Assembly: GCA_002436025.1 (NCBI GenBank) | Contig: DIXM01000002.1 | Location: 245,659-309,658, forward strand | DNA length: 64,000 nucleotides | Source of the DNA: a candidate division Hyd24-12 bacterium UBA6080 | Lineage (GTDB): Bacteria > Fermentibacterota > Fermentibacteria > Fermentibacterales > JCC-6 | Direction of reading: 5' to 3' | Shown here: positions 13,186 through 32,402 of the stretch, piece after piece | Layout of the letters: every line of letters starts with the position of its first letter | How positions within the stretch are numbered: the stretch's first letter is position 1 | Made by a program: the position numbers and the translations under genes | The notes under the pieces: generated by a model | Databases searched by the model: none | The model's input: the letters and a program-made list of their open reading frames with translations, nothing else | Told to the model about the DNA's origin: nothing

Positions 13186-13187
13186 AC
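13159..13187 (+). promoter_or_regulatory. Candidate sigma70-type promoter for rpsL-rpsG, embedded in the last codons of rpoC
   Basis: TTGACA - 17 nt - TAAACT, immediately before the rpoC stop. Followed by a 7-bp hairpin (CTGTTCC/GGAACAG, 13191-13213). Confidence 0.3.
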
Positions 13188-13241
13188 TTGCTGTTCCGCC
13201 AATGAAGGAACAGACGCTGTAAGGTTCTGAAAGGAGAGAAT

Positions 13242-13613
13242 TTGCCCACGATCAACCAACTGGTGCGGTCAGGGAGAAGCAAGCAGAAGGCCAACACAAA
13301 GGCTCCCGCGCTTACCTCCTGCCCTCAGAAAAAGGGCATCTGCACCCGTGTGTATACATCAACGCCCAAAAAGCCCAACTCCGCCCTCAGAAAAGTGGCC
13401 AGGGTCAGGCTTCGCAACGGTTATGAAGTAACAGCCTACATTCCCGGCGAGGGGCACAACCTCAACGAGCACTCCGTGGTTCTCGTCCGCGGGGGCAGGG
13501 TCAAGGACCTTCCCGGCGTGCGCTATCACATCATCCGCGGTGTTGAAGACGCCAGCGGCGTGAGCGGTCGCAAGCAGAGCAGGTCCAAGTACGGGACGAA
13601 GAAGGAAGCGTAG
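13242..13613 (+). CDS. rpsL: 30S ribosomal protein S12
   Basis: TTG start after [14 protein letters not shown]...[11 protein letters not shown] is the S12 signature. Confidence 0.92.
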
Positions 13614-13618
13614 GCGTC

Positions 13619-14086
13619 ATGAGAAGAAACAGACCGAAAAGGCGTGAGATACTTCCTGACAGGAAGTACGGAAACCTGGTGATCGCCAAGTTCATAAACA
13701 ACATCATGCACCAGGGCAAACGCTCAGTTGCCGAGGGCGTGGTATACGACGCTTTCGACATGATATCCGAAAAAACTGGTCAGGACCCCGTGGCCGTCTT
13801 CAACAAGGCCATGAACAACGTCCGCCCCACCCTCAAGGTGAAATCCAGGAGGGTTGGCGGTTCAACCTACCAGGTGCCCGTCGAGGTCAAGCAGAGCGAG
13901 CGCGACGCCCTGGCAATGCGCTGGATAATCAGCTACTCCAGGGGCCGCAAGGGGCGCAGCATGGCCCAAAGACTGGCCCAGGAGTTCATCGAGGCCTCCC
14001 AGGGCGAGGGCAACAGCGTCAAGAAGCGGGAAGACACCCACAAGATGGCCGAAGCCAACAAGGCTTTCGCCCACTACCGCTGGTAA
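13619..14086 (+). CDS. rpsG: 30S ribosomal protein S7
   Basis: 155 aa S7-like (MRRNRPKRREILPDRKYGN...). Confidence 0.92.
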   Translation: MRRNRPKRREILPDRKYGNLVIAKFINNIMHQGKRSVAEGVVYDAFDMISEKTGQDPVAVFNKAMNNVRPTLKVKSRRVGGSTYQVPVEVKQSERDALAMRWIISYSRGRKGRSMAQRLAQEFIEASQGEGNSVKKREDTHKMAEANKAFAHYRW

Positions 14087-14089
14087 TAA

Positions 14090-14161
14090 TTGGGGGACAC
14101 AATACTTGATTATCCGAAACGATGCGGGTCAAACTGGATAAGTAAGTTTTGTGTCCCCCAA
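14090..14161 (+). repeat. Palindromic repeat element copy A (72 nt)
   Basis: 13-bp perfect terminal stems TTGGGGGACACAA / TTGTGTCCCCCAA around a 46-nt interior. The conserved 5' motif TTGGGGGACACAATACTTGATTATCCGA recurs at 15049 and, inverted, at 16257. Starts 3 nt after the rpsG stop. Confidence 0.65.
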
Positions 14162-14177
14162 AATCCAAAAACCAAAA

Positions 14178-14564
14178 TCATTCCTCGAACACTCCATCGA
14201 CGAACTGCCCGTGATTCCTCCAGCAGTTCGCGTTCCATCCCCGAAGGCTGAACGTGTCCCTCTCTCTGCCCATGATACGGTATCTGTACTCGATGCCGGT
14301 CCTGGGGCAGACCAGACCTGCATGAACGTATCCTGAGATTGTGTTCAGCTTCTTCCAGCCGTTCCCCGGGGGATACTGATTGTGCTCTGCAAGGTAGAGT
14401 TGAAGCGCGCCCGCTATGGTTCTCAGATTCGACCTGCAGGAAGCAAGCTTTGCGCTTTCCGAAACGTCCCTGAATTTGGGAATGGCGATGGCGGACAGTA
14501 TTCCCAGTATCACCACCACTATCATGAGTTCGATGAGTGTGAAGCCCTTGTTGGAATCCTTCAC
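14178..14564 (-). CDS. Prepilin-type N-terminal cleavage/methylation domain protein (type IV pilin / T2SS pseudopilin-like)
   Basis: N-terminus MKDSNKGFTLIELMIVVVILGILSAIAIP is the class III signal with G|FTLIE. GTG start in a GTGA overlap with the upstream gene's stop. Confidence 0.75.
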   Translation of the reverse strand: MKDSNKGFTLIELMIVVVILGILSAIAIPKFRDVSESAKLASCRSNLRTIAGALQLYLAEHNQYPPGNGWKKLNTISGYVHAGLVCPRTGIEYRYRIMGRERDTFSLRGWNANCWRNHGQFVDGVFEE

Positions 14565-14965
14565 AGCTCACCTGCCTTGAAGGCTTCGATCTCCATGTCG
14601 GAAGTGTAATAGAGTCCGCCCGGGGTTCGAAGCGACCATTCATCGTCGTACTCCAGTTCGAACACGAAACCCGACGGAAGGTCAAGATCGGGTGCCAGGG
14701 GCATGGTATCGGTCAATGCCCGCCAATCCTGAACCCTCATGAAAACCGCAGCGACAGAATCCCTTTCCGCCTGCTCCAAAGGGGGCGGGGAGCCTACAAA
14801 ACCGCTGCCTTCAGGCTGATACAGCAGGACAACGATGATCAGAAGCGCACCCGCCGCGCCAAAGACCAGAATGCCGGAGCCTTTCTTCCGCTTTTCCTTC
14901 GGCGGGGCCTTCTCCTCGTAGACGATGTCCATGTCCAGCTCAAGGGGTTTCTGAGTGTTCGTCAT
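14561..14965 (-). CDS. Hypothetical membrane protein (co-transcribed with pilin)
   Basis: Start chosen at the ATG (MTNTQKP...) preceded by GGAGGAG; the ORF track's GTG at 14992 is upstream of it. One predicted TM segment (ILVFGAAGALLIIVVLLY). Confidence 0.5.
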   Translation of the reverse strand: MTNTQKPLELDMDIVYEEKAPPKEKRKKGSGILVFGAAGALLIIVVLLYQPEGSGFVGSPPPLEQAERDSVAAVFMRVQDWRALTDTMPLAPDLDLPSGFVFELEYDDEWSLRTPGGLYYTSDMEIEAFKAGEL

Positions 14966-15048
14966 GCCGGTCTCCTCCAGTAAGAGATTCACTCATCCCA
15001 ATCCCTGATTATCAAAAGAACTCCCACGGTTGCAAAGGGGTGGGTAAC

Positions 15049-15144
15049 TGGGGGACACAATACTAAATTATCCGATGGGAAAAATCTGAATCTTCAGGGT
15101 AGTTCAATGCAAACCTGCGGTTTTTACAGGTTTGTGTCCCCCCA
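15049..15144 (+). repeat. Palindromic repeat element copy B (96 nt)
   Basis: TGGGGGACACAATACTAAATTATCCGA...TTGTGTCCCCCCA with 12-bp perfect terminal stems. Lies in the divergent region between the minus-strand pilin operon and the plus-strand genes. Confidence 0.65.
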
Positions 15145-15160
15145 TTCCCTTGGAGGCCTT

Positions 15161-15861
15161 TTGAGACACTTCACATTGGCCCTCATCCTTCTTACGAAAT
15201 GGTCAGCTTATGGAGCAGATTCCGCATTATTCCGTTTCATCGGCTTTTCCACCGATGGAGTTTTTTCGCCTGGGAGCAGTACGGCGTACAGGACGGCAGC
15301 GGTTTTCCGTGGAGCACGGTGACCATCCAGTCGACTGCTGACGGATCAGTCATCCATGAGTTCAGCGTCGTCCTGGAAGACGGGTTCAAGGGAGAAGGCG
15401 ACCCCGGGGGGGAGAGTATGCGGCTGGCACACGAGGCTCTCCTCTGCCTGTCCGGCGGAAGCTGGGACAGGGGTTCGCTGCTCGTTCACCATCCCCCCAC
15501 AGACATGACGTTCGGGGGAAGCCAGGTGACCTTCTGCACGACTTACTACTCCCCCTCATACTACATCGGTGACTACACACTCGACCTTGTTACCGTGGAG
15601 ATTCCCGGGACTGAGATGGAGGAGTACTGGGGGTTCCCACCGCTTTCGTTGTCCGTGGTGTTTTCCGATAACATCACAGGTCTCACCCGAACGGTGATGG
15701 ATACATCCGACAGGACCGGCAACCTCCAATGGGTGTTCGGTTACGGCATACAGGACGTCTGGTGCATTGGGGACTCGGTCTTTGCTGCTGCCATCCAGTG
15801 CGTATCCATAGGTTTCGAAGGACCTGACCTGCGGTACCTGATGACGGGCTGGACGATTTGA
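15161..15861 (+). CDS. Hypothetical secreted protein; reading frame interrupted at a T6 tract (15261-15266)
   Basis: TTG start after GGAGG encodes a signal-peptide-like MRHFTLALILLTKWSAYGADSALF... in the frame of ORF 15107..15322. The long body continues in the frame of ORF 15199..15861. One extra T in the T6 run would join them into about 233 aa. Confidence 0.45.
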
Positions 15862-15885
15862 CCGGTCACATCGTGAGGAGGAACG

Positions 15886-16203
15886 ATGTCTTCTGAGAAA
15901 GCCTTCACCTGCAGCCAGTGCGGGGCCCCCGAACTGGAACGGTCGGGGGAGGGAAAGCTGCGATGCCCATATTGCGGCAGCCTCTACAGCTTTTCAGTGC
16001 GGGGTCCGACCGTTGTGATCCGAAAGGGAGCAAACGTCATCATTGGCAAAAAAGCAAAAGTTACGATAAGAGGCGGGGTGGAGATCCACGAAGGCGCCCG
16101 GGTCAAGATTGACGGAGAGGTGACACTTCTGGAAAGGGCGCCCGAAGAGGCCATCAGCGCCGCCAGACTGAGGCTGCGAGCAACGGGCAAAGACGAAACT
16201 TAA
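15886..16203 (+). CDS. Small zinc-ribbon protein with bactofilin-like beta-helical repeat segment
   Basis: GAGGAGG RBS. CSQCG...CPYCG zinc ribbon. Then VVIRKGANVIIGKKAKVTIRGGVEIHEGARVKIDGEVTLL, an alternating hydrophobic/Gly pattern as in bactofilin DUF583. Confidence 0.6.
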   Translation: MSSEKAFTCSQCGAPELERSGEGKLRCPYCGSLYSFSVRGPTVVIRKGANVIIGKKAKVTIRGGVEIHEGARVKIDGEVTLLERAPEEAISAARLRLRATGKDET

Positions 16204-16215
16204 GATATCTAAACT

Positions 16216-16249
16216 GAAGGTTCATTTTTCTTTAAAAAATGAGGCCTTC
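16216..16249. terminator. AT-rich palindromic hairpin between convergent genes
   Basis: GAAGG...CCTTC stem around the near-palindrome CATTTTTCTTTAAAAAATG. A striking AT island in GC-rich DNA. Confidence 0.3.
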
Positions 16250-16256
16250 GGTGCAA

Positions 16257-16285
16257 GATAATTTAGTATGGTGTCCCCCAATTTA
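16257..16285 (-). repeat. Repeat copy C (inverted, left-arm motif only)
   Basis: The reverse complement reads AATTGGGGGACACCATACTAAATTATC, about 24/27 identity to copies A and B. No partner arm. Abuts the stop codon of the MFS gene. Confidence 0.6.
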
Positions 16286-17464
16286 TTCCTTGATCGGCTT
16301 CAGGGTGAAACCAATGATGGCAGCCACGAAGCACAGGGCCGCGGCGGTATAGTAGGCTGCGGTGTAGCCGCCGGTAGAGTCGAGTATCCTTCCCGCCATC
16401 ATGGGGCCGATCTGCCCGCCCACACCCCACGCTGTGAAAAGAACTCCGTAGTTCAACCCCATGTTTTTCGTGCCGTAGAAATCACCGACCGCGGAGGGGT
16501 AGACGGAAAGCATGGCGCCGTAGGCGAAGGTGACGACCATCGCGCCGAAAAGGATGGATGCGAAGCTCCCGAAGCTTGCGAAGAAAAGAAGGACAGTACC
16601 CTGGGCGAGGTAGAGGATCATCATGGTCTTCGCCCGTCCCAGTTTGTCCGAGATGGTTCCCGCAATGGGCCGGCCAAGGGCGTTGCTTATTGCCATGAAG
16701 GCCACCAGCAGAAAGCCGAAGTTCCGGCCGGTCTGCACGCTGGCGATCGTTGAAAGGTGGCCGATGATCATCAGACCGGCCAGCGCCCCCGCGACGAACA
16801 TCACCCAGAGCTGGTAGAACTGCCGTGTGCGTATCATCTGTTTCCAGTCGTAGTCACGTACCGAGACCCTGGCCTGCCGTCCGGCAGCCTGCACCTGCTT
16901 TTCGGGGTTCTTTAGGGTCTGGGCGAGTCCCACCACCACCAGGAAGAAGCCCGCTCCGAGAATCCGGAAGGAGTTGAAGATCGTGTAGTTCTGTATCAGG
17001 TAGTTGGTGAGGGGCGCGATGTAGATGGTTGCCGCGCCGAACCCTCCCACCACCATGCCCGAGATCAGCCCCTTGCGCTCAGGTGGGAACCACTTTATGG
17101 CGACGGGGGTCGTGGCCGAGTAACCAAGACCGATTCCCGACCCCGCCATGATACCGAAGCACAGCACAAGCCCCGGAACGGTCTGGAAGAAACTGGCCAG
17201 AACCATGCCTCCCCCCACCAGTATCCCGGCCAGCGTCACTACGACCCTGGGGCCGTACTTGTCCTGAAGACGGCCACCGAAGATCATCATGACGGCGAAC
17301 ATTGCCACAGCCATCGTGTAGGGCAGCGAAGCCTGGGTGCTGCTCCATCCAAGCGATTCCCGCAGGTTGGCGGCGAAGATGCTCCAGGCGTAGAGAACTC
17401 CGAAGGAAAGGTTGATGCCCATTCCGGCCAGGACGATGGTCCATGCCCTTTTGTTCCTGTTCAT
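16283..17464 (-). CDS. MFS transporter, oxalate/formate antiporter (OFA) family-like
   Basis: 393 aa with 12 predicted TM helices. OFA-like motifs. Confidence 0.8.
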   Translation of the reverse strand: MNRNKRAWTIVLAGMGINLSFGVLYAWSIFAANLRESLGWSSTQASLPYTMAVAMFAVMMIFGGRLQDKYGPRVVVTLAGILVGGGMVLASFFQTVPGLVLCFGIMAGSGIGLGYSATTPVAIKWFPPERKGLISGMVVGGFGAATIYIAPLTNYLIQNYTIFNSFRILGAGFFLVVVGLAQTLKNPEKQVQAAGRQARVSVRDYDWKQMIRTRQFYQLWVMFVAGALAGLMIIGHLSTIASVQTGRNFGFLLVAFMAISNALGRPIAGTISDKLGRAKTMMILYLAQGTVLLFFASFGSFASILFGAMVVTFAYGAMLSVYPSAVGDFYGTKNMGLNYGVLFTAWGVGGQIGPMMAGRILDSTGGYTAAYYTAAALCFVAAIIGFTLKPIKE

Positions 17465-17535
17465 ATGCGGAAGCCCCCCTGTTGAATTTAGCCCGGATTA
17501 TAGCTGGATTGGCTGTTCTTAACAAAACCCGGCTA

Positions 17536-18765
17536 TCAGTGCTTTCCCGCCCGAATGCCTGAAGCTGCCGCCACTGCGGAAGAGAATGCCCACTGGATGT
17601 TGTAACCGCCGGTATCGCCGTCCACATCGAGGACTTCCCCCGCGAAGAAAAGACCCGGGGTGATCCTGGATTCCATGCTCTTCCGGTTGACCTCGTCCCG
17701 GGTCACGCCTCCCGCTGTTGCCATTGCGACATTGAAGCCGCCCTTTTTCGCAACCTTGACGGGAAATGCCGTTACCAGACCGAGTATCTTCATTCGATCG
17801 GTCCTTCCGATCTCTCCTCCCTTGCGGGACGGAACGATACCCGCCTTTTCGAGAACGGTGTCCGCGAGCCGTTCGGGAATGCCAAGGCCTTTCACGATGG
17901 TTCTGACCGCCTTCTTTCCCCCGGCCTGAAGGGCGGCGATAAGGCTGATTTCGACTTCTCCCGCAGGTTTGTCCGTAAGCGCCACCGAAAGCCTGTCACC
18001 ATCCCTGATGTGCCTGCTGAGGTCCAGTATTCCGGGTCCCGAAAGCCCAGCTCCGGTGAAGAGAACGTCGCCCCTGGCTGAAATCGTCCTCCCGTCGGCC
18101 TTATGAAGGGAGATCGCCGGGTTTTTGACTGATATGCCGGCAAGCCCTGCGGGAAAAGGTTCCTCCGCCGTTATGTGTGTGAGGGAGGGGGTGATGTCGG
18201 TTACGGTATGGCCCAGCGAAACCGCCAGATCGAACCCGTCACCTGCTGAGCCGGTGTCGGGGTAGGAGCACCCGCCCGTGGCTATGACCAGGTAATCGGA
18301 TGAGAACACCGCTGCACCAGTGGTGACGGTGAAACCGCCCTCCTCCCTTGAAACCGCTTCGACCTGTGAGTCGAACACCATCCTTACGCCCTTCCCGGCA
18401 CACCGCCCAAGAAGAAGCGCGAGGATGTCGGATGCCCTCATTCCCGCAGGGAACAGCTTGCCGTCCTCCCGGGCGAAGGTCTTTACGCCGCCGTTCTCGA
18501 GAAAGGCGCACAGGTCTTTGTTGGTGAAGGCCAGAAGGGCTGGTTTGACGAAATTGGCTGCTCCACCGTAGTGCCCGGTGAATTCACTGATCGGACCGGT
18601 CCGGCTGAAATTGCACTGCCCCGACCCCGAAAGCAGCAGCTTTCTGCCGGGACTTCCGTTCTTCTCAAGCAGGAGCACATCATCCCTGTTCGTGCATGCG
18701 TTCAGGGCACAGAACAGTCCTGCGGGACCTGCCCCGATGACAATGGTCTTGTATCTGGAGAGCAT
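17536..18765 (-). CDS. HI0933/BaiN-like NAD(P)/FAD-dependent oxidoreductase (aminoacetone oxidase family flavoprotein)
   Basis: Start set at the internal ATG giving MLSRYKTIVIGAGPAGLF (Rossmann GxGxxG). LLLEKNGSPGRKLLLSGSGQCNFS is typical of the HI0933 family. Confidence 0.8.
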   Translation of the reverse strand: MLSRYKTIVIGAGPAGLFCALNACTNRDDVLLLEKNGSPGRKLLLSGSGQCNFSRTGPISEFTGHYGGAANFVKPALLAFTNKDLCAFLENGGVKTFAREDGKLFPAGMRASDILALLLGRCAGKGVRMVFDSQVEAVSREEGGFTVTTGAAVFSSDYLVIATGGCSYPDTGSAGDGFDLAVSLGHTVTDITPSLTHITAEEPFPAGLAGISVKNPAISLHKADGRTISARGDVLFTGAGLSGPGILDLSRHIRDGDRLSVALTDKPAGEVEISLIAALQAGGKKAVRTIVKGLGIPERLADTVLEKAGIVPSRKGGEIGRTDRMKILGLVTAFPVKVAKKGGFNVAMATAGGVTRDEVNRKSMESRITPGLFFAGEVLDVDGDTGGYNIQWAFSSAVAAASGIRAGKH

Positions 18766-18772
18766 GAGCGGC

Positions 18773-19174
18773 CTACAGCCTCCATACCTCCTCGCCGGTC
18801 TGGACCAGGCCCATCCCGTTTTCCTCCAGGGCTGAGCGCATCCATTCCAGTGACTTGTCGAAGTTATCAAGCAGGACGGTGCTTCCGTTATCGGAGCTGA
18901 CCTGCAGCAACCTGCTGTTCCGGGCGTAGGTTCCCCTGGAAACGGTTACTGTGCCGAAGGGAAGGCTGACAGGTTTTCCCCTTATCAGAAGCTTTAGAAG
19001 GATACCCAACTGGGTGTAGAGCAGCGCCATCTTTCCCAGGTCGTGAAAGACGAACCTTCTGTTGGTCAGAACGCAACGGCAGTCAACCGGGAACTTTATC
19101 TTCCCGCCCTGCAGCGTGTAACGGCGTCTGTCGGCGAAAACCTGCTCATCGGGGTCGGGCGTGAACTTCGGCAT
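18773..19174 (-). CDS. Hypothetical protein (possible bacterial PH-like fold)
   Basis: 133 aa, no signal peptide. Co-directional and tightly spaced between the OM-barrel gene and the oxidoreductase gene. Confidence 0.4.
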   Translation of the reverse strand: MPKFTPDPDEQVFADRRRYTLQGGKIKFPVDCRCVLTNRRFVFHDLGKMALLYTQLGILLKLLIRGKPVSLPFGTVTVSRGTYARNSRLLQVSSDNGSTVLLDNFDKSLEWMRSALEENGMGLVQTGEEVWRL

Positions 19175-19189
19175 GAAACTCCTTTTTTC

Positions 19190-19921
19190 TCAGAACATCC
19201 TTCTGATGGTAAAGCCCAGGGCGAGGTCGTTCGTGGCCGCCCCGTTCAACTGCCCCCGCGGGCCGATGCCGGTACTGTTCCCAAGGATGACGACGAACTG
19301 GTGACCCCATGTGGTGCGCCTGACCCCGAAGCAGAACGAGTCTTCGGGAAGGATCGATTGATCTTCGTCATCCCGGTCGATGACCGGGAAGTATTCTCCG
19401 ATAAGGGCCGTATTCTCCCCAAGACCAAGGGAAAGACCGAACCCGGGGCCGTGCCTTTCGGTCCTGCCGTCATAGGCATAGTTCACCGTGGGGATGATCC
19501 GCCCGTTCGCGAAGGGGGCCGAGAACGCGCCAAGCAGCGTCAGCCCGCCCTCACGGTCCTGGTTGGCCGCAGGTTTCACCGAGGAATACCCCATGGAAAA
19601 GGCAGCCTCGAAGCTGTCGACAAAGGTGCTCCAGTACCCGCCCAGCGTGTATTCCTTCCCGGAGCGCACGTGCCCGGCCCTGATCTCGAGACCGTTCACC
19701 GGGAACCATCCCAGTTCTGCACCCACGTTGGCACCGATGTCCATTCCGAAGAATGTCTCGATCGGTTCGTCCTTAAGTGCTGCCCCGTAGAACCTGTGGT
19801 TCAGCCTGAGTTCCAGGCTTCCCTCACCGGTTGCCGGCGCGGGGGTCTCGATGTTGAGCATCCCAGGGCCGTAGGCGGCCAAAGGACAGGCGATCGCCAG
19901 AAGCATCGCGGCAACTCTCAT
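19190..19921 (-). CDS. Putative outer-membrane beta-barrel protein
   Basis: Signal peptide MRVAAMLLAIACPLAAYG. Alternating amphipathic strands rich in aromatic and Gly residues. C-terminal ...GFTIRRMF ending in Phe. Confidence 0.55.
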   Translation of the reverse strand: MRVAAMLLAIACPLAAYGPGMLNIETPAPATGEGSLELRLNHRFYGAALKDEPIETFFGMDIGANVGAELGWFPVNGLEIRAGHVRSGKEYTLGGYWSTFVDSFEAAFSMGYSSVKPAANQDREGGLTLLGAFSAPFANGRIIPTVNYAYDGRTERHGPGFGLSLGLGENTALIGEYFPVIDRDDEDQSILPEDSFCFGVRRTTWGHQFVVILGNSTGIGPRGQLNGAATNDLALGFTIRRMF

Positions 19922-19930
19922 GAGAACCTC

Positions 19931-20461
19931 CTAAAGGAGTTCGAGTGAAACTGCACGAACGAACTGGTGCGCGCTTGTGAAATCATCTCCCCCACTTGGA
20001 CCGTAAGCCAGCAGGATCGCATAGGTTTCCCCCTGGGTGAGAACGGCATCGTACAGGTCGCCGGAAGACATGGGGATGGAGAAGTCGATCTCGGTCTTGT
20101 TTCCGGTCTCGCCCGCCTCTATGAGCGTGACGTTGCTGTTGCCTCCCAATACAATGTCGGCCTCGTGGGTCGTGACGCCCGTACCGAAATCGTCACGTAT
20201 GAACCCCGTTCCGTCTTCGACGTATCCGATGATGAAATTCGCATCCTTCATCATCACGGAGGGGTCGAAACCAACCGCAACCCAGCCCGTCGTTGGCGCG
20301 GAGAGTTTCACGTGAAGGGTCGCCCCGTCGTTCTCCACCCGCCACTGAAACACGACATCGTCAGTGGTGTAGTCGTTCCATCCCTCGGTCCCGGAAGGGC
20401 CCGTGGTGTCGCCGCAGCTTCCCATAAGAAGCAGGGCTGTAATGACAAAAGCTTTTTTCAT
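19931..20461 (-). CDS. DOMON-domain lipoprotein (paralog 1)
   Basis: MKKAFVITALLLMGSCG lipobox. TGWVAVGFDPSVMM.DANFIIGYV...IRDDFG...H..D..LGG core shared with the divergent paralog. Confidence 0.7.
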   Translation of the reverse strand: MKKAFVITALLLMGSCGDTTGPSGTEGWNDYTTDDVVFQWRVENDGATLHVKLSAPTTGWVAVGFDPSVMMKDANFIIGYVEDGTGFIRDDFGTGVTTHEADIVLGGNSNVTLIEAGETGNKTEIDFSIPMSSGDLYDAVLTQGETYAILLAYGPSGGDDFTSAHQFVRAVSLELL

Positions 20462-20545
20462 TCCGCCTCCGCCCTTTTCCATCGTTTTCCTTACTTGACA
20501 GTTGTATTATTATACTTGCTGGTGAAAAAGAAAGGAAGGCTGACA

Positions 20546-21094
20546 ATGGGTAAGCTGTTGATCATCATGGCCGTCCTCACAGGCACCACATTCGCATGGC
20601 AGGAGATCGAGGTTTCGGGATTCCTCCTCAGATGGGAAACCCGGGCGGGAGACAACCTTGCTGTGGAGCTCACCGGTCCCACGACGGGCTGGGTTGCGGT
20701 GGGTTTCGACCCCTCCGTGATGATGCTGGACGCCAACATCATCATCGGCTACGTTTCGGGCGGCAACACCTTCATCAGGGACGACTTTGGATGGCAGACC
20801 ACATCCCACAGGGCCGACACCCTCCTGGGGGGAACCGAAGACTTTATCATCGACGGCGGCTCCGAGTCCGGGGGGGAAACCCAGATCAGGTTCACCATCC
20901 CGCTTGACTCCGGTGACCAGTACGACAAGCCCCTTGTTCCCGGCAGCTCCTACCCGATAATACTTGCCAGGGGACCCAACGGCGCAGACGACTTCTCGAC
21001 CCAGCACCAGTTCATAACCACTGCCACCATCGACATCCTTGCCTTCTCCCTCCAGGGGTCCACCTGGGGTAGGGCGAAGATGGGTCTTGACTGA
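20546..21094 (+). CDS. DOMON-domain protein (paralog 2, signal peptide)
   Basis: AAAGGAAGG RBS. MGKLLIIMAVLTGTTFA signal. The same TGWVAVGFDPSVMMLDANIIIGYV...IRDDFG core as paralog 1. Confidence 0.7.
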   Translation: MGKLLIIMAVLTGTTFAWQEIEVSGFLLRWETRAGDNLAVELTGPTTGWVAVGFDPSVMMLDANIIIGYVSGGNTFIRDDFGWQTTSHRADTLLGGTEDFIIDGGSESGGETQIRFTIPLDSGDQYDKPLVPGSSYPIILARGPNGADDFSTQHQFITTATIDILAFSLQGSTWGRAKMGLD

Positions 21095-21692
21095 GAGCAC
21101 GACCGACACTCTTCGGATACTCGCCTTTGCGGGCAGCACCAGAGAGGGATCTTTCAATCGCGCACTGATGGAACAGGCTGCCGGGTTCGCACGCGAGGCC
21201 GGCGCTGCTGTCACCCTGGTCGATCTCGACGACTTCCCCATGCCGATAGTGAACCAGGACCTTGAAACCGCGCACGGCATCCCTGCGACCGCCCTGGCCT
21301 TCAAACGGCTTCTTTCAGAGAACGACGGCTTTCTCATCGCGTCGCCTGAATACAACGGCTTCGTTACACCGCTGCTCAAGAACTGCCTGGATTGGGCTTC
21401 CCGTTCGGAAACGCCCGACGAGAAGCCCCTCTCGGCGTTCAGGGGGAAGACGGCGGCCATCCTGTCGGCATCACCCGGAGGCCTTGGGGGGCTCCGCAGC
21501 CTGTCCGTCCTCAGAACGCTTCTGACGAACCTCGGTGTGATCGTGCTTCCGGGGCAGCATGCGGTCTCCGGGGCGGACGGGGCGTTCGATGATGAAGGAA
21601 AACTGAAGGATTCCGGGAACGTCGCATCGGTGAAAAGGGTCGTCCGGGAACTTGTCAGGGTCACTTCCGCTCTGAGAGCAACGGTCCACTGA
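21087..21692 (+). CDS. NAD(P)H-dependent FMN reductase family protein
   Basis: TTG start overlapping the DOMON stop. LRILAFAGSTREGSFNRAL...LIASPEYNGFVTPLLKNCLDW is typical of the SsuE/ArsH-like FMN reductase family. Confidence 0.75.
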   Translation: MTESTTDTLRILAFAGSTREGSFNRALMEQAAGFAREAGAAVTLVDLDDFPMPIVNQDLETAHGIPATALAFKRLLSENDGFLIASPEYNGFVTPLLKNCLDWASRSETPDEKPLSAFRGKTAAILSASPGGLGGLRSLSVLRTLLTNLGVIVLPGQHAVSGADGAFDDEGKLKDSGNVASVKRVVRELVRVTSALRATVH

Positions 21693-22387
21693 TGCTGCTT
21701 CAGGCGCTTCCGCCGGCGCTCCCGCCCGGGAGTTCAGAATCATCCGACGCACTCCAGGCCATCGCCCTGCGAGCCGTGCTCCGATCCCCGGAGTGGGGGC
21801 AGGTCAAAGAGTACTGGAACCTTCTGAACCGCGTAACAGGGAAAGGTGGCCAGTTCCAGCCCGCCGGTGACCTGGACATGGCAAAGGCCGACAGCATCAT
21901 AGCCGATGTTCGCAGGTGCATGGCCGGGCTCAACCCCGACGGCGGTACGGGGGGCATGTGGAGCGCCCTTGAGATGACGGGTCTTCTCGTTGAGACCCGG
22001 GCACTGAGGCTCAGCCGCATCAACCCCGCTTTCATGACAAGGATGATGCCCTCATGGTCGACCACCTTCGGTGAAGACCTGCTCTACAGCTTCGACTCAA
22101 GGCTCAGGGAGCTCGAGAGGCTCAGGAGCGGGGGTGAACTCACCGAAGAGGTCTTCCTGTCTGCGTCGGATACGCTTGGCAGACAGTTCGAAACGTGGGC
22201 GCTTCTGCAGTTGGCCGATGACCGGTACGGCTTCGGGCCCCCCGGTATTCAGGAAAGGCTTCTGGAGGTCGAACTCCTCTACGAAACCGTTGCGGAGGAA
22301 TTCGGCGAGGAGAGGGTTCTGGCCTTCAGGGAGATGCGCCCATACCTCGAGCCCCTTCTCGAAAGTCTTCTTGAGGAGTTTTACTGA
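21692..22387 (+). CDS. Hypothetical protein (231 aa, no recognisable domain)
   Basis: TGATG coupled to the FMN reductase gene. Ends in a CTGA junction with the radical SAM gene. Confidence 0.5.
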   Translation: MLLQALPPALPPGSSESSDALQAIALRAVLRSPEWGQVKEYWNLLNRVTGKGGQFQPAGDLDMAKADSIIADVRRCMAGLNPDGGTGGMWSALEMTGLLVETRALRLSRINPAFMTRMMPSWSTTFGEDLLYSFDSRLRELERLRSGGELTEEVFLSASDTLGRQFETWALLQLADDRYGFGPPGIQERLLEVELLYETVAEEFGEERVLAFREMRPYLEPLLESLLEEFY

Positions 22388-23298
22388 ACGTCTTCTGGTT
22401 CGCGTTCGAGGTCACTCCCGTCTGCAACCTTTCCTGCGGCTACTGTTACAACTTCTGGCGCGACCCCGGGCAGCAGGTTCCACGGGAGCTTGAGATTACA
22501 GAGATCCGGGGGATTCTGCACAGCCTTCGGACCGATGCCCCGGGATCAGGCGTGACCCTTACGGGAGGCGAACCCCTGCTCAGACCCGATCTTCCCGGGA
22601 TCGCAGCTGCAGCAGCGGAACAGGGCTTCACAGTGGCCGTCGCCACCAACGGGACACTTCTGACATCATCCATTGCCCGCGAACTGCGGGATTCGGGAGT
22701 AAGGCACTTCGACATCGGCATCGAAACCAGAGTCGCGGACGTTTCAGAAGGGATAGCAGGTGCCTGTGCGACCGGGGCCAGCGTCACCCTTTCACTTTGC
22801 CTCACCTCGAAAAACTCCGGTTCGGCACCGGAAGTGGTGAGGTTTGCGGCGGCTCTGGGGGCCGATGCCGTGTGTCTGAACAGGTTCGTTCCAACGGGCA
22901 GGCCGACCGATGCCGACCACCTGCCCTCGTCAACCGGGATCATTGATGCCCTGCGGGATGCCGGAAGGGTGGGCGCGGAGCTCTCCCTGCCTGTCTACGC
23001 GGGCATCCCGCTGGAGCCCTGTGTGTTCCCCAATGTCAATGAATTTGGTATAATCAACACCGCATGTCACTGTGGAGAGGGAAAGTGGGCCATAGGGCCC
23101 GATGGCTGGCTGAGAACCTGTGAGCAGAGCCCTGTTCTTCTCGGAAGCCTGCTTACAGAAAGGTTTTCTGCACTGAGGGAGTTGACCGTCGTGAAAGGGT
23201 TCCGTGAAGCCACACCTTTCCGTAAATGCCATGGTTGTGCCGATCTTCCACGTTGCGGCGGAGGGTGCAGGTTTCTTGACGGATCGGAGTGCAGTTGA
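22384..23298 (+). CDS. Radical SAM / SPASM-domain protein (no canonical start codon before the Cys motif)
   Basis: Frame open from 22375. It encodes LNVFWFAFEVTPVCNLSCGYCYNFW (CxxxCxxC), then GGEPLL, then C-terminal CHCGEGKW...CHGCADLPRCGGGCR (SPASM/twitch-like). The first canonical start (GTG 22552) lies after the cluster motif. A CTG at 22384 overlaps the upstream TGA. Confidence 0.6.
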   Translation: MNVFWFAFEVTPVCNLSCGYCYNFWRDPGQQVPRELEITEIRGILHSLRTDAPGSGVTLTGGEPLLRPDLPGIAAAAAEQGFTVAVATNGTLLTSSIARELRDSGVRHFDIGIETRVADVSEGIAGACATGASVTLSLCLTSKNSGSAPEVVRFAAALGADAVCLNRFVPTGRPTDADHLPSSTGIIDALRDAGRVGAELSLPVYAGIPLEPCVFPNVNEFGIINTACHCGEGKWAIGPDGWLRTCEQSPVLLGSLLTERFSALRELTVVKGFREATPFRKCHGCADLPRCGGGCRFLDGSECS

Positions 23299-23789
23299 AC
23301 TACTTCGCGTACGGATCGAACATGTCCCTGGCAAGGCTGTCCGCCAGGATCCCGTCGGTGCGGCGAACCTGTGTGGGCTCTCTCGCCGGTTATAAACTGG
23401 TGTTTCACAAGGCCGGTGAAAGCGACGGCTCGGCCAAATGCGACGCATTCTTCACGGGCGACCCGTCCCACGAGCTCCTGGGCGTGGTGTACCGGATCGA
23501 TCCCGACGAGAAACACAGGCTGGACATCATCGAAGGCGTCGGTTACGGCTACGAGAACCGTTGCGTCAAGATCAGGCTCGGGGACGGCAGCGTCGTTTCG
23601 GCCTGGGTTTACTGCGCCACCGTCATCAATCCTTCGCTGCTGCCTTTCGACTGGTACAGGGAGCATGTGGTGAGGGGAGCCCTTGAAAACGGTCTTCCCG
23701 ACCATTACGTCTCCCGCATAAGGGCCGTCGAGGCAAAGAGCGACCCCGACCGTGAACGGGCCTCACGCGAGCTTTCCATCTACGCCTGA
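23289..23789 (+). CDS. Gamma-glutamylcyclotransferase (GGCT/AIG2-like) family protein
   Basis: N-terminus QLNYFAYGSNM is the GGCT signature. GTG start overlapping the radical SAM gene end. Confidence 0.75.
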   Translation: MQLNYFAYGSNMSLARLSARIPSVRRTCVGSLAGYKLVFHKAGESDGSAKCDAFFTGDPSHELLGVVYRIDPDEKHRLDIIEGVGYGYENRCVKIRLGDGSVVSAWVYCATVINPSLLPFDWYREHVVRGALENGLPDHYVSRIRAVEAKSDPDRERASRELSIYA

Positions 23790-23791
23790 AC

Positions 23792-23820
23792 TTGACAAAC
23801 CGGCATCCTGTCGTAAGAAT
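23792..23820 (+). promoter_or_regulatory. Candidate promoter upstream of fusA
   Basis: TTGACA - 17 nt - AAGAAT, 42 nt before the fusA ATG. Confidence 0.25.
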
Positions 23821-23861
23821 GCCTGCCTGTAACCCCCACAGCCAGGAGACAGGTTCCGCCC

Positions 23862-25916
23862 ATGAGCAGCCCCAGTGCACTTCGCAACATAGGCATCTTC
23901 GCCCACATCGATGCGGGCAAGACCACGGTCACGGAGAGGATACTTTTCTACACCGGCCGCACTCATCGAATGGGAGACGTTGACCACGGCACCACGGTGA
24001 TGGACTGGATGCCGCAGGAGCGCGAAAGGGGCATAACCATCGTTTCCGCAGCCACCACGTGCACCTGGAAGAACACCACCATAAACATCATAGACACACC
24101 CGGTCACGTTGACTTCACGGCCGAGGTCGAGCGTTCCCTCAGGGTCCTCGACGGCGGAGTGGCTGTATTCTGTGCGGTGGGAGGCGTCGAACCCCAGACC
24201 GAAACTGTCTGGCGCCAGGCTCTGAAGTACGGGGTCCCGACCATTGCTTTCGTGAACAAGATGGACCGCCAGGGAGCAGATTTCCCCAGGGTGCTCCAGA
24301 TGATGCGGGACATCCTTGGGGCTGTGCCCCTGCCCGTTTTCCTTCCCATCGGAAGCGGACAGGCCTTCAGGGGCATCGTGGATGTGATACGCAGCCGTGC
24401 GCTCTTCTTCGATCCAGAATCACTTGGCGAGACCATACGTGAAGAGCCGATACCCGAAGAGATGGCCGATTCCGCGGCCCGGGCCCTCGAGGCCGTTCAG
24501 GAGGCCGTGGCTGACCTTTGCGAAGATGCCATGGAACGTTACTGCACGGGGAATCTCGATCCGTCCCTCATCATCCCGCTCATCAGGAGGGGAACGCTTG
24601 AGAAACGGTTCGTTCCGGTCCTCTGCGGCGCCGCCCTCAGGAACGTGGGCGTTCAGCGTCTTCTCGACGCCATAGTCGACTGGCTTCCCGCCCCTGAAGA
24701 GCTTCCTCCCGTCACAGGCATCAAGTCCGACGGCACCGAAGCGGAAAGGTCCAGAGGCACTGATTCGCCCTTCACCGCCCTGGTGTTCAAGATACAGACC
24801 GACTCCCATCTGGGCAGGCTCGCCTACATGAGGGTGTATTCGGGAAGCGCGAAGGATGGCCAGGCCGTTCTGAACAACCGTACGGGCCGGAAGGAGAGGA
24901 TGATGCGCCTGGTCCGCATGCATGCGGACAAGCGTGACCACCTCGACTTCGTACAGGCCGGAGACATAGCGGCGGCTGGAATGAAGGACGCTGCAACGGG
25001 CGACACCCTGACGGCGCCCGAACACCCGATTACCCTTGAATCCATCGATTTCGCCGAACCGGTCATGCAGATGGCCATCGAGCCCGCGGGCGCCCGTGAT
25101 GACAAGGCTCTGGAGGACGCCCTTCAGGAGATGACCAGTGAGGACCCCAGCCTGAGGGTGGGAGTAGACCGCGATACCGGCCAGAACATCATCATGGGCA
25201 TGGGAGAGCTGCATCTGGAGATCGTGGTGGACAGACTAAAGCGGGAGAAGAATCTTCAGGTTCACACCGGGAACCCCCAGGTATCCTACCGCGAGGGCGT
25301 TCTGCGCCCGGGCAGGGGCGAGGGCAGCTTCGAGAGGCTCATCGCGGGCCGTGGCAATTTCGGCCATGCCGTGGTGCAGGTCGAACCCACTGGGGGGGGG
25401 ATCGAGATAGCAAGCACTGTTTCAGGGCTTCCCTTTTCCTTCACCGAGGCCGCCAAAAGCGGGATCAGGGGCAGTGTGGGCGCCGGAGCACTTGCGGGTT
25501 TTCCAGTGGATGGCATTCGTATAACGCTGATCCAGGCAAGGCTTCACGAGACCGATTCGACGGAACTTGGCTATGCCTCGGCCGCTGCAGCCGCCTTCCG
25601 GGAAGCACTGAAGGATGGCTCACCGGTGATCCGCGAGCCCATAATGATGCTGGATGTGATATCCCCGGTAGACTACCTCGGCGAAGTCCTGGGCGACATC
25701 AGCTCCCGCCGTGGACAGGTCGAGGCCATCCACCAGCGCGGGGAAGCGCGCAACATCCACGCCAGGGTTCCCCTGGCCGAGCTGTTCGGGTATTCCAGCA
25801 ACATAAGGAGCCTCACCCAGGGCCGCGCAGGGTTCTCCATGCAGTTTTTGAACTACGAGAACACCCCGCCCAACGTTCAACGCGACCTTCTTCAGAAAAT
25901 GGGCATCATCACCTGA
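23862..25916 (+). CDS. fusA: Elongation factor G
   Basis: 684 aa. [14 protein letters not shown] and DTPGHVDF G-motifs. Domains II-V recognisable. Separated from rpsG and from rpsJ by accessory DNA. Confidence 0.9.
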
Positions 25917-26311: not shown

Positions 26312-29227
26312 ATGTCGTATCTTCCTCCCAGATTTGGTGTATTCACTCTTAGCGTTCTAATCCTGCTCACTCAGTCCCTCATCGCAGCGGAACCCGGGGA
26401 GAACACAATTCCCATCATAGGCATGCGGGCTTCCAACAACGCAGACTTTTCAGGGATAGGCATTCGTCTTCTCTGCGAGCTGTCTTGGAAGTGTTTCGAC
26501 GGAGTGGAGGTGGAGGGACTTGTGGTGGATGGTTCCGCGGGAAACCCGGATTGGCAAGACAATCGTGATTTCATAGAACTCTGCGGTGATGCGGGCATGC
26601 TTCTGGTCCTTGCTCCCTGGGAGATAAGCCAGTTCCATAACTTCTGGAACGTAAACACCGCGTACTGGTTCCGCTGGGAGGACTATTCACTCAATTCCGG
26701 GAAGTGTTTCGGGCAGCTTTCCGAAACCCTTGGAGCACCGATTGACTCCATGACGGCTGCGCAGATGGCAGATACCACTGAAATCAGATCAGTTGCATAC
26801 GCGAACAACCAATTGGCAATCACCTTGAACCCTGCGACTTATCCCGCCCTTTGGTTCTACAACGTATATGACGAGGCGCCTGCGCGTCAGCGTGCCAGAA
26901 TGATAGAAGGTTCCACGACATGGGACGATTGGATCCCCAACCTCTACACCCAGGACACACTGAGCAATGGTGAACCAACCCTGACGGAGATAGAACCCGC
27001 GGGCATCTACTCCTGGCAGAAGTGGTTTGCGGAAAACCACGTGACAACTCCCATCCCCCTTACCATCAACTTCTCCCTGCTGCATACCATTCAAGCCAAT
27101 GAGTACACCGGGATAACCTGGGATCTCAACTACGGCACCATGCACCAGCAGGCCAATTCTGTCAGAGCGTTGTGCGAAGCCCTGTACCAGGGGCCTCCCG
27201 GGACGGGAACGCCCGTTGACCCGGTGAGCAACTCCCCTGAGTTCATCTGTTTCGACTACTACCCGTTTCGGTATGTTCACATTGATTCCCTGGGAGCAAC
27301 CCTCTGCGACGACGACTGGCTCTTCCTTGTTGACCATTGCGAACAGGGGATGGACTCGACGGTGTTCGCGGCAAGGGAGAGCGATGTCCCGGTGTTCTTC
27401 TACCCTCAGGCCTTCGGGGTCTCCGGAGGTCCGCTGCTGCGTGATTCCGCAGGAGATCTTGAGTACCTTTCCTACACGTACCGCACTCCTGCTCCTCAGG
27501 AGTTCCGCATGCTCTGCAATCTGGCCCTGCTGCACCAGGCAAAGGGGCTTTTTCCCTACTCCCTGGCCGGCTACATCTCTGACCCCAATGCCCCTGAAGA
27601 TCAGAACAACTTTATATGCAACTCGCTTCTCGACCTTCACGGCATACCGTTCGATGCTCCGTACGAAGACTGGGTGTACACCGGAAGGTGGCCGGATACT
27701 GGTGACTGGGAAGGCGGGTACGAGTACGCCGACCCCGGGGAACTTCCCCCCTTCAGCGCGGGCTTCGACCCTCTCTACGAGGTGTCGGCAGCACCGGTTC
27801 CAGTGCAGGATGACCCGAAGAACACCGAGAGGTTTCTGACATGGCTCTTCGAGCCCTACTCGAGGCTTTACGACAGCGTTCAGGTTCCCCTGGCCGAGGC
27901 TGCAGTGATTGCACCCGAGATGTCGGATCTCTGGTGGTGGGAGGGTTCGTGGGACGCTGCAAGTATCTCTGTGGACGACCCTGAGATCTACGACCACTAC
28001 GTTCCACCTGTGATAAAGGTGTTCCAGGGGCCGGACAGCAGCCACGTGTATCTTTACTACGTGAACCGCTACCTGAGGAACGAAGAGACGGATTACACCG
28101 TCAGGCTCACTGTCTCTCAGAGCCCCGGGTACGTATCCTTAACTGTACTTGACCACAGCAGGCGCTTTTTGATACCGGCTCCTTCAGGGGGCGGGGGCAA
28201 CGATGTTTACGTCGCCTTCGACGACACGCTGGAAGCGGGTGAGGGCAGGCTCGTTGAGTTCGTGGACACAAATGCTCTTCCCGCGGACATCAGGGTGACG
28301 TCACCCGACGTTTATGTGTACAGGCAGGGCGCCGTGAACAGAAGCGACCGGTTGTGCTGCACCGCCGGTGAAACCATCACCTTCGGAGCCGTGTACTACA
28401 ACATGGGGACTGCGGCAACCGGAGATATCAGCGTGGTCTTCGAAAAGGTTGGTACACCGTACATACTGGGCACCGACACGATACGTTTCGGGGGGCTTTC
28501 AGGGTACTACAACCCCGACAGCGCCTCCGCGAGCATTCAGTGGGAGACCGATGTGAACGACATTGGTGTTCACAGGATCGGGATAAGCGCGGGAGCCGTT
28601 TCCGGCGAGAACACATCCGACAACAGTGTTACGGTCACGGTTCTTGTTGAGCCTTTGGACTACGCCACCGAAGTTCCGGGGAACGCGTGGGACATGACCG
28701 AGGCTGTGAGCAATCCGCCGGACTGGTTCACCAATGACATTGTCTCGATTGCGGCCGGCTGGATTGATTCATGCTGGACCGATTCCGTCAGCGGAATGTT
28801 CGAGGGCGCAATTGAGTCCCGCACTTACGGTGCCTGGACAGGGTTCAAGGGGGATATCAGCCTTAACACCGGCGGTGGATCAATCAACGCAGACCGGTAC
28901 ACATTGCTGAGCCTTGCCGGTGTCTCCCTGAACCCCAATGTATCTACAACGGAGTATGGCTGCGGCATGTTCCTGTTATGGAAGGATTCAACGGAGACCG
29001 AGCGTCAGTTGGAGCTTCACGGGAGCAACGGCTTTGATCGGTGGCTTGGGAACGGCAGGGAGATGTGGCGCGAGTTCGGACCTCTTGACCTCTCCGATGT
29101 TCCTTGGTGGGGCGGCGAGATAAGCGATCTGAGGATAAGGTTCCAGATGGATCCGCCCGGAAGTCTCCCGGGTAGCTCCCTTGGCATCAGGATCGGCTGG
29201 GTCAGGCTGGAAGAAGGTGCTTTGTGA
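26312..29227 (+). CDS. Large secreted hypothetical protein (971 aa) with CARDB-like Ig-fold segment
   Basis: N-terminal signal peptide. No catalytic motif recognised. A segment around residues 640-760 resembles CARDB/Ig-like repeats. Confidence 0.65.
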   Translation: MSYLPPRFGVFTLSVLILLTQSLIAAEPGENTIPIIGMRASNNADFSGIGIRLLCELSWKCFDGVEVEGLVVDGSAGNPDWQDNRDFIELCGDAGMLLVLAPWEISQFHNFWNVNTAYWFRWEDYSLNSGKCFGQLSETLGAPIDSMTAAQMADTTEIRSVAYANNQLAITLNPATYPALWFYNVYDEAPARQRARMIEGSTTWDDWIPNLYTQDTLSNGEPTLTEIEPAGIYSWQKWFAENHVTTPIPLTINFSLLHTIQANEYTGITWDLNYGTMHQQANSVRALCEALYQGPPGTGTPVDPVSNSPEFICFDYYPFRYVHIDSLGATLCDDDWLFLVDHCEQGMDSTVFAARESDVPVFFYPQAFGVSGGPLLRDSAGDLEYLSYTYRTPAPQEFRMLCNLALLHQAKGLFPYSLAGYISDPNAPEDQNNFICNSLLDLHGIPFDAPYEDWVYTGRWPDTGDWEGGYEYADPGELPPFSAGFDPLYEVSAAPVPVQDDPKNTERFLTWLFEPYSRLYDSVQVPLAEAAVIAPEMSDLWWWEGSWDAASISVDDPEIYDHYVPPVIKVFQGPDSSHVYLYYVNRYLRNEETDYTVRLTVSQSPGYVSLTVLDHSRRFLIPAPSGGGGNDVYVAFDDTLEAGEGRLVEFVDTNALPADIRVTSPDVYVYRQGAVNRSDRLCCTAGETITFGAVYYNMGTAATGDISVVFEKVGTPYILGTDTIRFGGLSGYYNPDSASASIQWETDVNDIGVHRIGISAGAVSGENTSDNSVTVTVLVEPLDYATEVPGNAWDMTEAVSNPPDWFTNDIVSIAAGWIDSCWTDSVSGMFEGAIESRTYGAWTGFKGDISLNTGGGSINADRYTLLSLAGVSLNPNVSTTEYGCGMFLLWKDSTETERQLELHGSNGFDRWLGNGREMWREFGPLDLSDVPWWGGEISDLRIRFQMDPPGSLPGSSLGIRIGWVRLEEGAL

Positions 29228-31062: not shown

Positions 31063-31089
31063 ACACGTTGCAGGAGAGACCGTTTCCCG

Positions 31090-32253: not shown

Positions 32254-32402
32254 GTTTTCTCTTCTTCTTTTGGGAAAAAGCAGCCCGGAATCTCCCTGTT
32301 CTTCAGGTGGCTTGCCACACATTCGCAGCAAACACCCTTTCGGGAGCACGGTTCGTAGCTGCAGTTGCACCGCTTGAGATTTTCAGGCTTTCTGCACTCC
32401 AT
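32199..32402 (-). CDS. Small cysteine-rich protein (67 aa, 7 Cys; CxCx5Cx5CCxC...C)
   Basis: Strong SD: GGAAGGAGTG, 5 nt before the ATG. MECRKPENLKRCNCSYEPCSRKGVCCECVASHLKNREIPGCFF. Divergent from the S10 operon. Confidence 0.6.
   Translation of the reverse strand: MECRKPENLKRCNCSYEPCSRKGVCCECVASHLKNREIPGCFFPKEEEKTWDRSFEHFAKLVGKGKV

Follow-up and report, generated by a model that had tools for sequence, protein, structure and literature searches.

A ten-gene block of a Fermentibacteraceae bacterium as a likely mosaic of two separately conserved cassettes

The DNA analyzed here, referred to as the window, is a stretch of 64,000 nucleotides from a Candidatus Fermentibacteraceae bacterium. It carries a block of ten genes arranged in two strings that diverge from a short spacer, and each string is led by a gene for a DOMON protein. 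The minus-strand genes are named A1 to A5 and the plus-strand genes B1 to B5, both counted from the spacer (Table 1). A previous sequence-only reading of this DNA had proposed that the ten genes form one functional module. We found that the block was maintained within a single clade, and that elsewhere the DOMON genes travelled with the gene of a DUF5777 outer-membrane barrel, while B3 and the radical S-adenosylmethionine (SAM) gene B4 formed a pair of their own. We favor, with a probability of about 0.6, the view that this locus is a mosaic peculiar to its lineage, assembled from two uncharacterised cassettes that are conserved independently of each other and from clade-specific accessory genes, and not one ancestral system.

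Gene content and layout of the block

All ten open reading frames (ORFs) were present at or near the coordinates of the sequence-only reading. Its span of 19190-23789 left out three of the genes that it described; the described set runs from 16283 to 23789. The block is flanked by rpsL-rpsG (13242-14086) and fusA (23862-25916), and lies within the superoperon that extends from rpoB-rpoC to the ribosomal-protein genes.

Families were assigned with Pfam and NCBIfam profiles against their curated cut-offs. A1 and B1 matched the Pfam DOMON profile PF03351 with 69.5 and 65.4 bits (cut-off 32.7) and shared 46% identity (BLASTP, E 3e-52), so the pair of paralogs said to diverge from the 84-bp spacer was confirmed, as were the export signals of both proteins; relatives of A1 carried a classical xGC lipobox. 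A2 matched PF19089 (DUF5777) with 48.6 bits (cut-off 23.1) in an alignment confined to its C-terminal third. A4 scored 268.9 bits with HI0933_like and 391.6 bits with TIGR00275 (cut-off 183.8). A5 passed the NF049980 equivalog for the SfMCT L-lactate transporter (424.6 bits, cut-off 320), whereas it scored 242.9 with the OFA subfamily model TIGR00890, under the cut-off of 374.85; its placement in the major facilitator superfamily (MFS) held. B2 matched FMN_red PF03358 with 136.3 bits, B4 matched Radical_SAM PF04055 with 73.9 bits (PF13186 was recorded for its homologs), and B5 matched AIG2_2 PF13772 and GGACT PF06094 with 54.8 and 44.3 bits. These scores support the calls of an FMN reductase, a radical SAM/SPASM enzyme, a GGCT-like enzyme and an HI0933-type oxidoreductase. 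With the ArsH model, B2 scored only 72 against a cut-off of 292. No CxxCH motif was present in any of the ten proteins.

Two proteins remained without a family. A3 had no Pfam match even at E values up to 1 and no NCBIfam match, and the label "PH-like" given to it previously found no profile support. B3 had no Pfam or NCBIfam match either; of the barrel and the 231-aa protein, both of which had been suggested for annotation with hidden Markov models (HMMs), the former was assigned to DUF5777 and the latter to no family.

The plus-strand junctions were as previously read. B1 and B2 overlap by 8 nt, given a B2 start at TTG 21087; B2 and B3 share 1 nt in TGATG at 21692; B3 and B4 meet in CTGA, where CTG 22384 overlaps the TGA at 22385-22387; and B4 and B5 overlap by 10 nt from GTG 23289 or by 4 nt (TTGA) from TTG 23295, the latter being the B5 start that agrees with relatives. 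The tight coupling claimed for both strings was confirmed. The minus-strand genes do not overlap, being spaced by gaps of 9, 15 and 7 nt, and A5 is preceded by a gap of 71 nt. This last gap contains a sigma-70-like promoter-like site, TTGTTA-17-TATAAT (17525-17497), and A5 is probably a separate transcription unit, a neighbor with its own promoter. A second promoter-like site was found upstream of fusA. The start of A4 is most likely ATG 18765, rather than TTG 18870.

Table 1. Genes of the block and the spacer between its two strings, in window positions
Feature	Positions	Strand	Remarks
A1, DOMON lipoprotein	19931-20461	-	176 aa; signal peptide, lipobox-like LMGSC; invariant M71, H99, H165
A2, DUF5777 outer-membrane beta-barrel	19190-19921	-	243 aa; signal peptide; C-terminal Phe
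A3, protein without family assignment	18773-19174	-	133 aa; narrow clade only
A4, HI0933-like FAD enzyme, TIGR00275 family	17536-18765	-	409 aa from ATG 18765
A5, MFS monocarboxylate (L-lactate type) transporter	16283-17464	-	NF049980 match
Divergent control region	20462-20545		84 bp
B1, secreted DOMON paralog	20546-21094	+	182 aa; signal peptide ends TFA/WQE
B2, NAD(P)H-dependent FMN reductase, flavodoxin-like fold	21087-21692	+	TTG start; PF03358
B3, all-helical protein without family	21692-22387	+	231 aa; flexible loop NPxxxTRMMPxW, residues 110-125
B4, radical SAM/SPASM enzyme	22384-23298	+	304 aa; CTG start
B5, GGCT-like (AIG2_2/GGACT) enzyme	23289-23789	+	alternative start TTG 23295

Conservation of the block and of its parts

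Twelve loci were found to keep the block from A3 to B4 in the divergent layout directly upstream of fusA, namely L001-L006, on contigs that were located by way of B3 relatives 47-60% identical to the window protein, and L012-L017, which come from six GTDB genomes. We saw the full block in a single family-level clade of Fermentibacteraceae only, where it was present in every examined member, with B3 identity falling to 47% across the clade and with varying flanking genes. The block is therefore a real, maintained arrangement, but inside one family-level clade only. Single genes were lost within the clade: the HI0933 gene in L001 and L016, A3 in L015 (phmmer found A3 only in L001-L006 and L012-L017, minus L015) and the GGCT gene in L004-L006 and L017. 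In L004, a sulfatase gene lies between the MFS gene and the HI0933 gene. The overlaps of B2/B3 (1 nt), B3/B4 (4 nt) and B4/B5 (4-10 nt) were kept throughout the clade, while the B1/B2 junction varied from an overlap up to a 67-nt gap. The spacer contains the AT-rich element TTGTATTATTAT at 20502-20513, followed by the ribosome-binding site GAAAGGAAGG at 20530-20539, and both were conserved in the window, L003, L004, L012, L013 and L015; in L001 and L016 the spacer was longer and different. These elements are probably a shared -10 region and the ribosome-binding site of the plus operon.

A genome-wide pattern scan with a DOMON alignment yielded 78 loci, whose six-frame ORFs were searched with the ten window proteins and whose neighbors were all clustered de novo. 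The DUF5777 barrel gene adjoined the DOMON gene on the same strand in 51 of them. This pairing was present in Fermentibacterota/Aegiribacteria, Cloacimonadota, WOR-3, Zixibacteria, Coatesbacteria and a deltaproteobacterium, and was absent from all 10 Spirochaetota loci. Outside the narrow clade (72 loci, seven or more phyla), the barrel was the sole family that travelled with DOMON; neither the radical SAM gene nor the 231-aa gene occurred in these 72 loci, and an FMN reductase gene was near DOMON in only two of them, L023 and L027. At all six distant radical SAM loci examined, a B3 homolog lay directly upstream and ended at or overlapped the radical SAM start, and these loci contained no DOMON gene and no third common gene. 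Aegiribacteria MLS_C carries its DOMON cassette on one scaffold (L032) and its B3/B4 pair on another (L009, which has an NCBI counterpart), which shows that the two are separable. The co-occurrence that had been expected of a module was thus observed within the Fermentibacteraceae clade, where A3 to B4 stay together in the 12 loci, but the set of DOMON, radical SAM and FMN reductase genes was not linked outside it.

On the mosaic reading, the ten genes would fall into three units. The first (A1, A2 and B1) would be an old cell-envelope cassette consisting of one lipid-anchored and one soluble DOMON protein plus a small barrel; the second (B3 and B4) would be a self-contained two-gene cassette; and the third would comprise clade-specific additions, namely the FMN reductase, the GGCT-like enzyme, the 133-aa protein, the HI0933 flavoprotein and the lactate-type MFS transporter. 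Other Fermentibacterota carry one divergent DOMON gene with two tandem DOMON genes and a barrel gene, and the divergent layout therefore predates the accretion of the other genes. A puzzling ten-gene block may in this way be resolved into two clean, testable units. None of these units was found in the searchable literature, and the ten genes do not appear to be a single system, described or undescribed. In particular, we found no relevant paper on DUF5777, PF19089 or bacterial DOMON proteins with haem, and no curated Pfam or NCBIfam family covers the 231-aa protein, in agreement with the earlier view that the combination matches no described system.

The tight translational coupling of B1-B5 and the conserved linkage of both strings in the clade count against the mosaic, as they would also fit a genuine functional link in this lineage. 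One pathway in this clade could then be served by the whole set of ten genes (or by A3-A1 with B1-B5), for example a haem or electron route from cytoplasmic flavoenzymes to the envelope DOMON proteins and barrel, in which the radical SAM enzyme makes or tailors a cofactor. We consider this to be rather unlikely. Even at 47-60% protein identity the block is kept whole amid varying flanks, and stop and start codons overlap throughout B1-B5; however, the cassettes are apart everywhere outside the clade, and HI0933, A3 and GGCT have each been lost in some clade members. An FMN reductase gene adjoins DOMON in L023 and L027 as well, but there it is convergent with the DOMON gene and hence not in one operon with it. 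Lastly, the highest-scoring NCBIfam models for B4 are those of two tetrapyrrole enzymes, AhbD and NirJ2, although AhbD (79.2 bits) and NirJ (74.1 bits) fall far below their cut-offs of 500 and unrelated radical SAM families score similarly.

Several further observations concern the setting of the block. The rpsL-rpsG-fusA (str) operon, which is usually contiguous, is interrupted here by about 9.7 kb of unrelated genes (window 13242-25916), and a second insertion, at 26312-32370, lies between fusA and the rpsJ/rplC block, which is located at about 33126. The str operon is likewise split in the relatives L003, L004 and L012-L017. Just past rpsG, at 14178-14992 on the minus strand, a gene resembling those of type IV pilins (N_methyl motif) is accompanied by a small partner, and downstream of fusA lies a gene for an FG-GAP repeat protein with Por_Secre_tail, a sorting domain of the type IX secretion system (T9SS; 29224-31062, plus strand). 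In L003, fusA was split into two ORFs (12171-14226), and in L005 the DUF5777 barrel gene was split likewise (7353-8250); these frameshifts are maybe assembly errors or pseudogenes in the metagenome-assembled genomes.

The DOMON/barrel and radical SAM cassettes

The AlphaFold2 (AF2) model of A1 had a predicted local distance difference test (pLDDT) score of 89. In Foldseek searches it matched the DOMON domain of DBH and the cytochrome domains of cellobiose dehydrogenase (CDH) with a probability of 1.0. E values against the cytochrome-b domains of CDH and pyranose dehydrogenase (PDH) ranged from 1e-5 to 2e-5 with TM scores of 0.62-0.66, and the haem-b subunits of ethylbenzene dehydrogenase (EBDH) and Nxr were matched as well; matches to CBM9 sugar-binding modules were much weaker (TM about 0.4). 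A sequence search of the PDB with the DOMON profile gave nothing useful, so the fold search alone was informative. As profile and predicted fold agreed, the original DOMON calls were not reassigned.

Of 170 DOMON domains, 161 retain M71, 164 retain H99 and 162 retain H165. The haem ligands of CDH, which we take to be Met65 and His163 (the sequence was checked against PDB 1D7C), are separated by 98 residues, compared with 94 between M71 and H165. The local motifs also correspond, with GGAM-NNDLLLVAW and TFSEH in CDH and SVMM-KDANFIIGY and FTSAH in the DOMON proteins. Additionally, a five-repeat DOMON protein of Cloacimonadota passed the Pfam CDH-cyt profile PF16010 (30.2 against 27), as the only relative to do so. 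Since Met and His occupy the sites that correspond to the CDH haem-b ligands, the DOMON proteins are probably b-type cytochrome domains, judging from sequence and model. In each of them, Met71 and His165 would ligate a single haem b in the manner of the CDH cytochrome domain. The proteins might transfer one electron at a time, or hold haem, at the outer membrane, with the DUF5777 barrel as their membrane partner, either anchor or conduit.

Three points weigh against haem binding. The ligand match rests on a non-significant hhalign alignment and on motif inspection. Five Asp residues are invariant in the DOMON domains and could signal a binding site for Ca2+ or sugar like that of CBM9. Moreover, Fermentibacteria were described as non-respiring fermenters (PMC5030696), and hence no electron acceptor or haem source is known for the DOMON proteins. 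The DOMON/DUF5777 pair might then be a ligand-uptake or binding system for haem scavenging, sugar or metal and not an electron carrier, which we regard as improbable. Such a system would accord with the CBM9 matches, the invariant Asp residues, the resemblance of a surface lipoprotein plus barrel to uptake systems and the haem scavenging that non-respiring hosts may need. Nevertheless, the CBM9 matches are much weaker than those to cytochrome domains, Met and His are retained at the haem-ligand positions, and de novo clustering revealed no conserved neighbor that is a TonB-dependent receptor or ABC importer.

If the cytochrome reading is followed further, DOMON proteins with haem b and the DUF5777 barrel could form an unrecognised outer-membrane electron conduit without a c-type cytochrome, through which fermentative candidate phyla (Fermentibacterota, Cloacimonadota, WOR-3 and Zixibacteria) pass reducing equivalents to extracellular acceptors or partners, and which is co-expressed with a dedicated flavin reductase in this Fermentibacteraceae clade; we offer this as a speculative and quite doubtful extension. 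The cassette is widespread in uncultured anaerobes thought to have no respiratory chains, and if its DOMON proteins bind haem b, a function would have to be sought for exported b-type cytochromes in organisms that live by fermentation alone.

In Cloacimonadota, tandem DOMON proteins with three or five repeats are encoded next to the barrel gene (L050 7898-10471; L070 9875-12397; L040, L056, L062, L064, L065 and L086). In 11 loci, mostly of Cloacimonadota (e.g., L086 8809-9189), the DOMON/barrel genes are accompanied by a gene for a small secreted protein, about 110-127 aa long, that Pfam does not match.

In the second cassette, the B4 frame contains no ATG, GTG or TTG codon upstream of the CxxxCxxC motif as far back as the preceding stop; this holds for the window, L001/L016, L012 and L013. 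From the sequence, CTG 22384 is the only plausible start. The CTGA junction, with CTG four codons before a conserved Trp, was kept in all eight CTG-bearing lineages (the start overlap was noted in the window, L001, L003, L004, L012, L013 and L016). L015 has TTGA at the same position, where gene callers start the gene, and the NCBI annotation of the L012 ortholog starts at the codon in this position. Elsewhere, the conserved CTG start leads gene callers to predict a truncated product of 248-281 aa, in which the catalytic CxxxCxxC motif is missing. A -1 frameshift fusing B3 to B4 was rejected, as there is no conserved slippery site, the CTG of the window is preceded at a distance of four codons by an in-frame stop, and the L015 codon in its place is TTG, a canonical start.

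B4 has the cluster motif (Cys14/18/21) and a Cys-rich C-terminal region (Cys 213, 228, 230, 246, 282, 285, 291 and 295), as expected of a radical SAM/SPASM enzyme, and the eight C-terminal Cys are invariant in its family alignment. Its best PDB profile matches were the peptide-modifying enzymes PqqE (93 bits) and SkfB (83 bits), and all curated NCBIfam radical SAM equivalogs scored it far under cut-off; a tetrapyrrole identity as AhbD or NirJ was rejected on the scores given above. An identity as anSME was also considered, given the sulfatase genes near the block in L003 and L004, and rejected, as there is no curated match and no adjacent sulfatase in the window.

Homologs of B4 at about 35-45% identity were found in Aegiribacteria, Phycisphaerae, deltaproteobacteria and others. 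The narrow-clade B3 HMM matched the upstream partner in five of the six distant loci (E 1e-11 to 1e-34), and the sixth (L007) was recovered by a wider-family B3 HMM (E 3.5e-34). A more distant radical SAM subfamily, taken from a metagenome scan with the radical SAM alignment, served as a negative control, and the partner was absent among the matches listed. B3 homologs formed 14 clusters in a collection of 5.8 billion sequences, one of them named Candidatus Fermentibacteraceae, and a profile search of 1.84 billion representative proteins gave 52 clusters; the sequences of the wide B3 alignment had diverged too far for it to serve as the seed of a scan of metagenomes. In the family alignment, W35, W42, R103, R117 and M118 were invariant and an [ML]TRMMPP motif was evident. 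The AF2 model of B3 was all-helical (pLDDT 73), with the conserved motif loop below 50 and predicted to be disordered. The N-termini of the family are mostly signal-peptide, lipobox or transmembrane segments, which are absent in the window clade.

Pfam searches with 32 family members returned weak SHOCT and GvpG matches only. B3 residues of about 131-166, past the RMMP loop (RLRELERLRSGGELTEEVF), look SHOCT-like, and the weak SHOCT matches occurred in two members. One protein of 1368 aa (P0267) contains 11 repeats of this post-loop segment. Both the window (15199-15861) and Aegiribacteria MLS_C (L009 3438-4202) encode a predicted secreted protein of DUF2259 within a few kb of the pair, which may be coincidence.

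Taken from sequence conservation and the model, the most likely role of B4 is modification of the conserved flexible [ML]TRMMPP-type loop of B3. Cytoplasmic B4 would make a post-translational change in this Arg-Met-containing loop of its helical partner. We regard this as the most economical reading; a RiPP recognition element (RRE) domain is absent, and a short precursor ORF would find no space. B2, whose translation is coupled to that of B3 and B4, may supply low-potential electrons to the radical SAM cluster; it is a reasonable candidate donor since FMN_red proteins have a flavodoxin-like fold. As points to the contrary, B3 has no conserved Cys, the residue that many SPASM enzymes target, and its role could be that of an accessory subunit or scaffold instead of a substrate. 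That B4 is instead a maturase of ribosomally synthesized and post-translationally modified peptides (RiPPs), acting on a short unannotated precursor, is suggested by its SPASM-type architecture and by PqqE and SkfB as its closest solved relatives, but is very improbable: the spacers within the operons (0-84 nt) are too small for such an ORF and none is present, B4 starts about 10 residues ahead of CxxxCxxC and thus has no RRE domain, and the only neighbor conserved across phyla is the B3 family of 230-400 aa. A rare radical SAM/SPASM enzyme and a partner with an invariant Arg-Met loop may represent a new protein modification.

Comparison with known systems

The DOMON proteins A1 and B1 resemble the CDH cytochrome domain and other haem-b DOMON proteins (PDB 1D7C, 4QI3 and 6JT6) in their beta-sandwich fold, equivalent Met and His positions and extracytoplasmic location. 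They differ in that sequence identity is about 12%, both are stand-alone bacterial proteins, one of them lipid-anchored, and they pair with an outer-membrane barrel instead of being fused to a flavin or pyrroloquinoline quinone (PQQ) dehydrogenase; haem binding is a prediction in their case. As in the MtrCAB porin-cytochrome conduits, an outer-membrane barrel gene stands beside genes for exported putative haem proteins, one of which is a lipoprotein. In contrast, A2 has 243 aa against about 700 aa and 26 strands, CxxCH is absent, and the haem would be b-type with one per domain. An identity as an MtrCAB-type conduit is ruled out by the proteins without CxxCH and by the 243-aa barrel.

A4 and A5 passed the curated cut-offs of the HI0933/TIGR00275 flavoenzymes (aminoacetone oxidase and BaiN relatives) and of SfMCT, respectively, and differ from the members of those families in a linkage to the DOMON cassette that is confined to this clade. 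The B3/B4 cassette was compared with PqqE/PqqA, SkfB, anSME and its sulfatases, and QhpD/QhpC. In contrast to these systems, it has no RRE or PqqD component, and the partner of B4 is a helical protein of 230-400 aa that has an RM(M)PP loop and lacks conserved Cys. The likeness lies in the CxxxCxxC motif and Cys-rich C-terminal SPASM region of B4, in the dedicated adjacent partner gene and, as with the substrates of anSME and QhpD, in a B3-family partner that is exported in most lineages.

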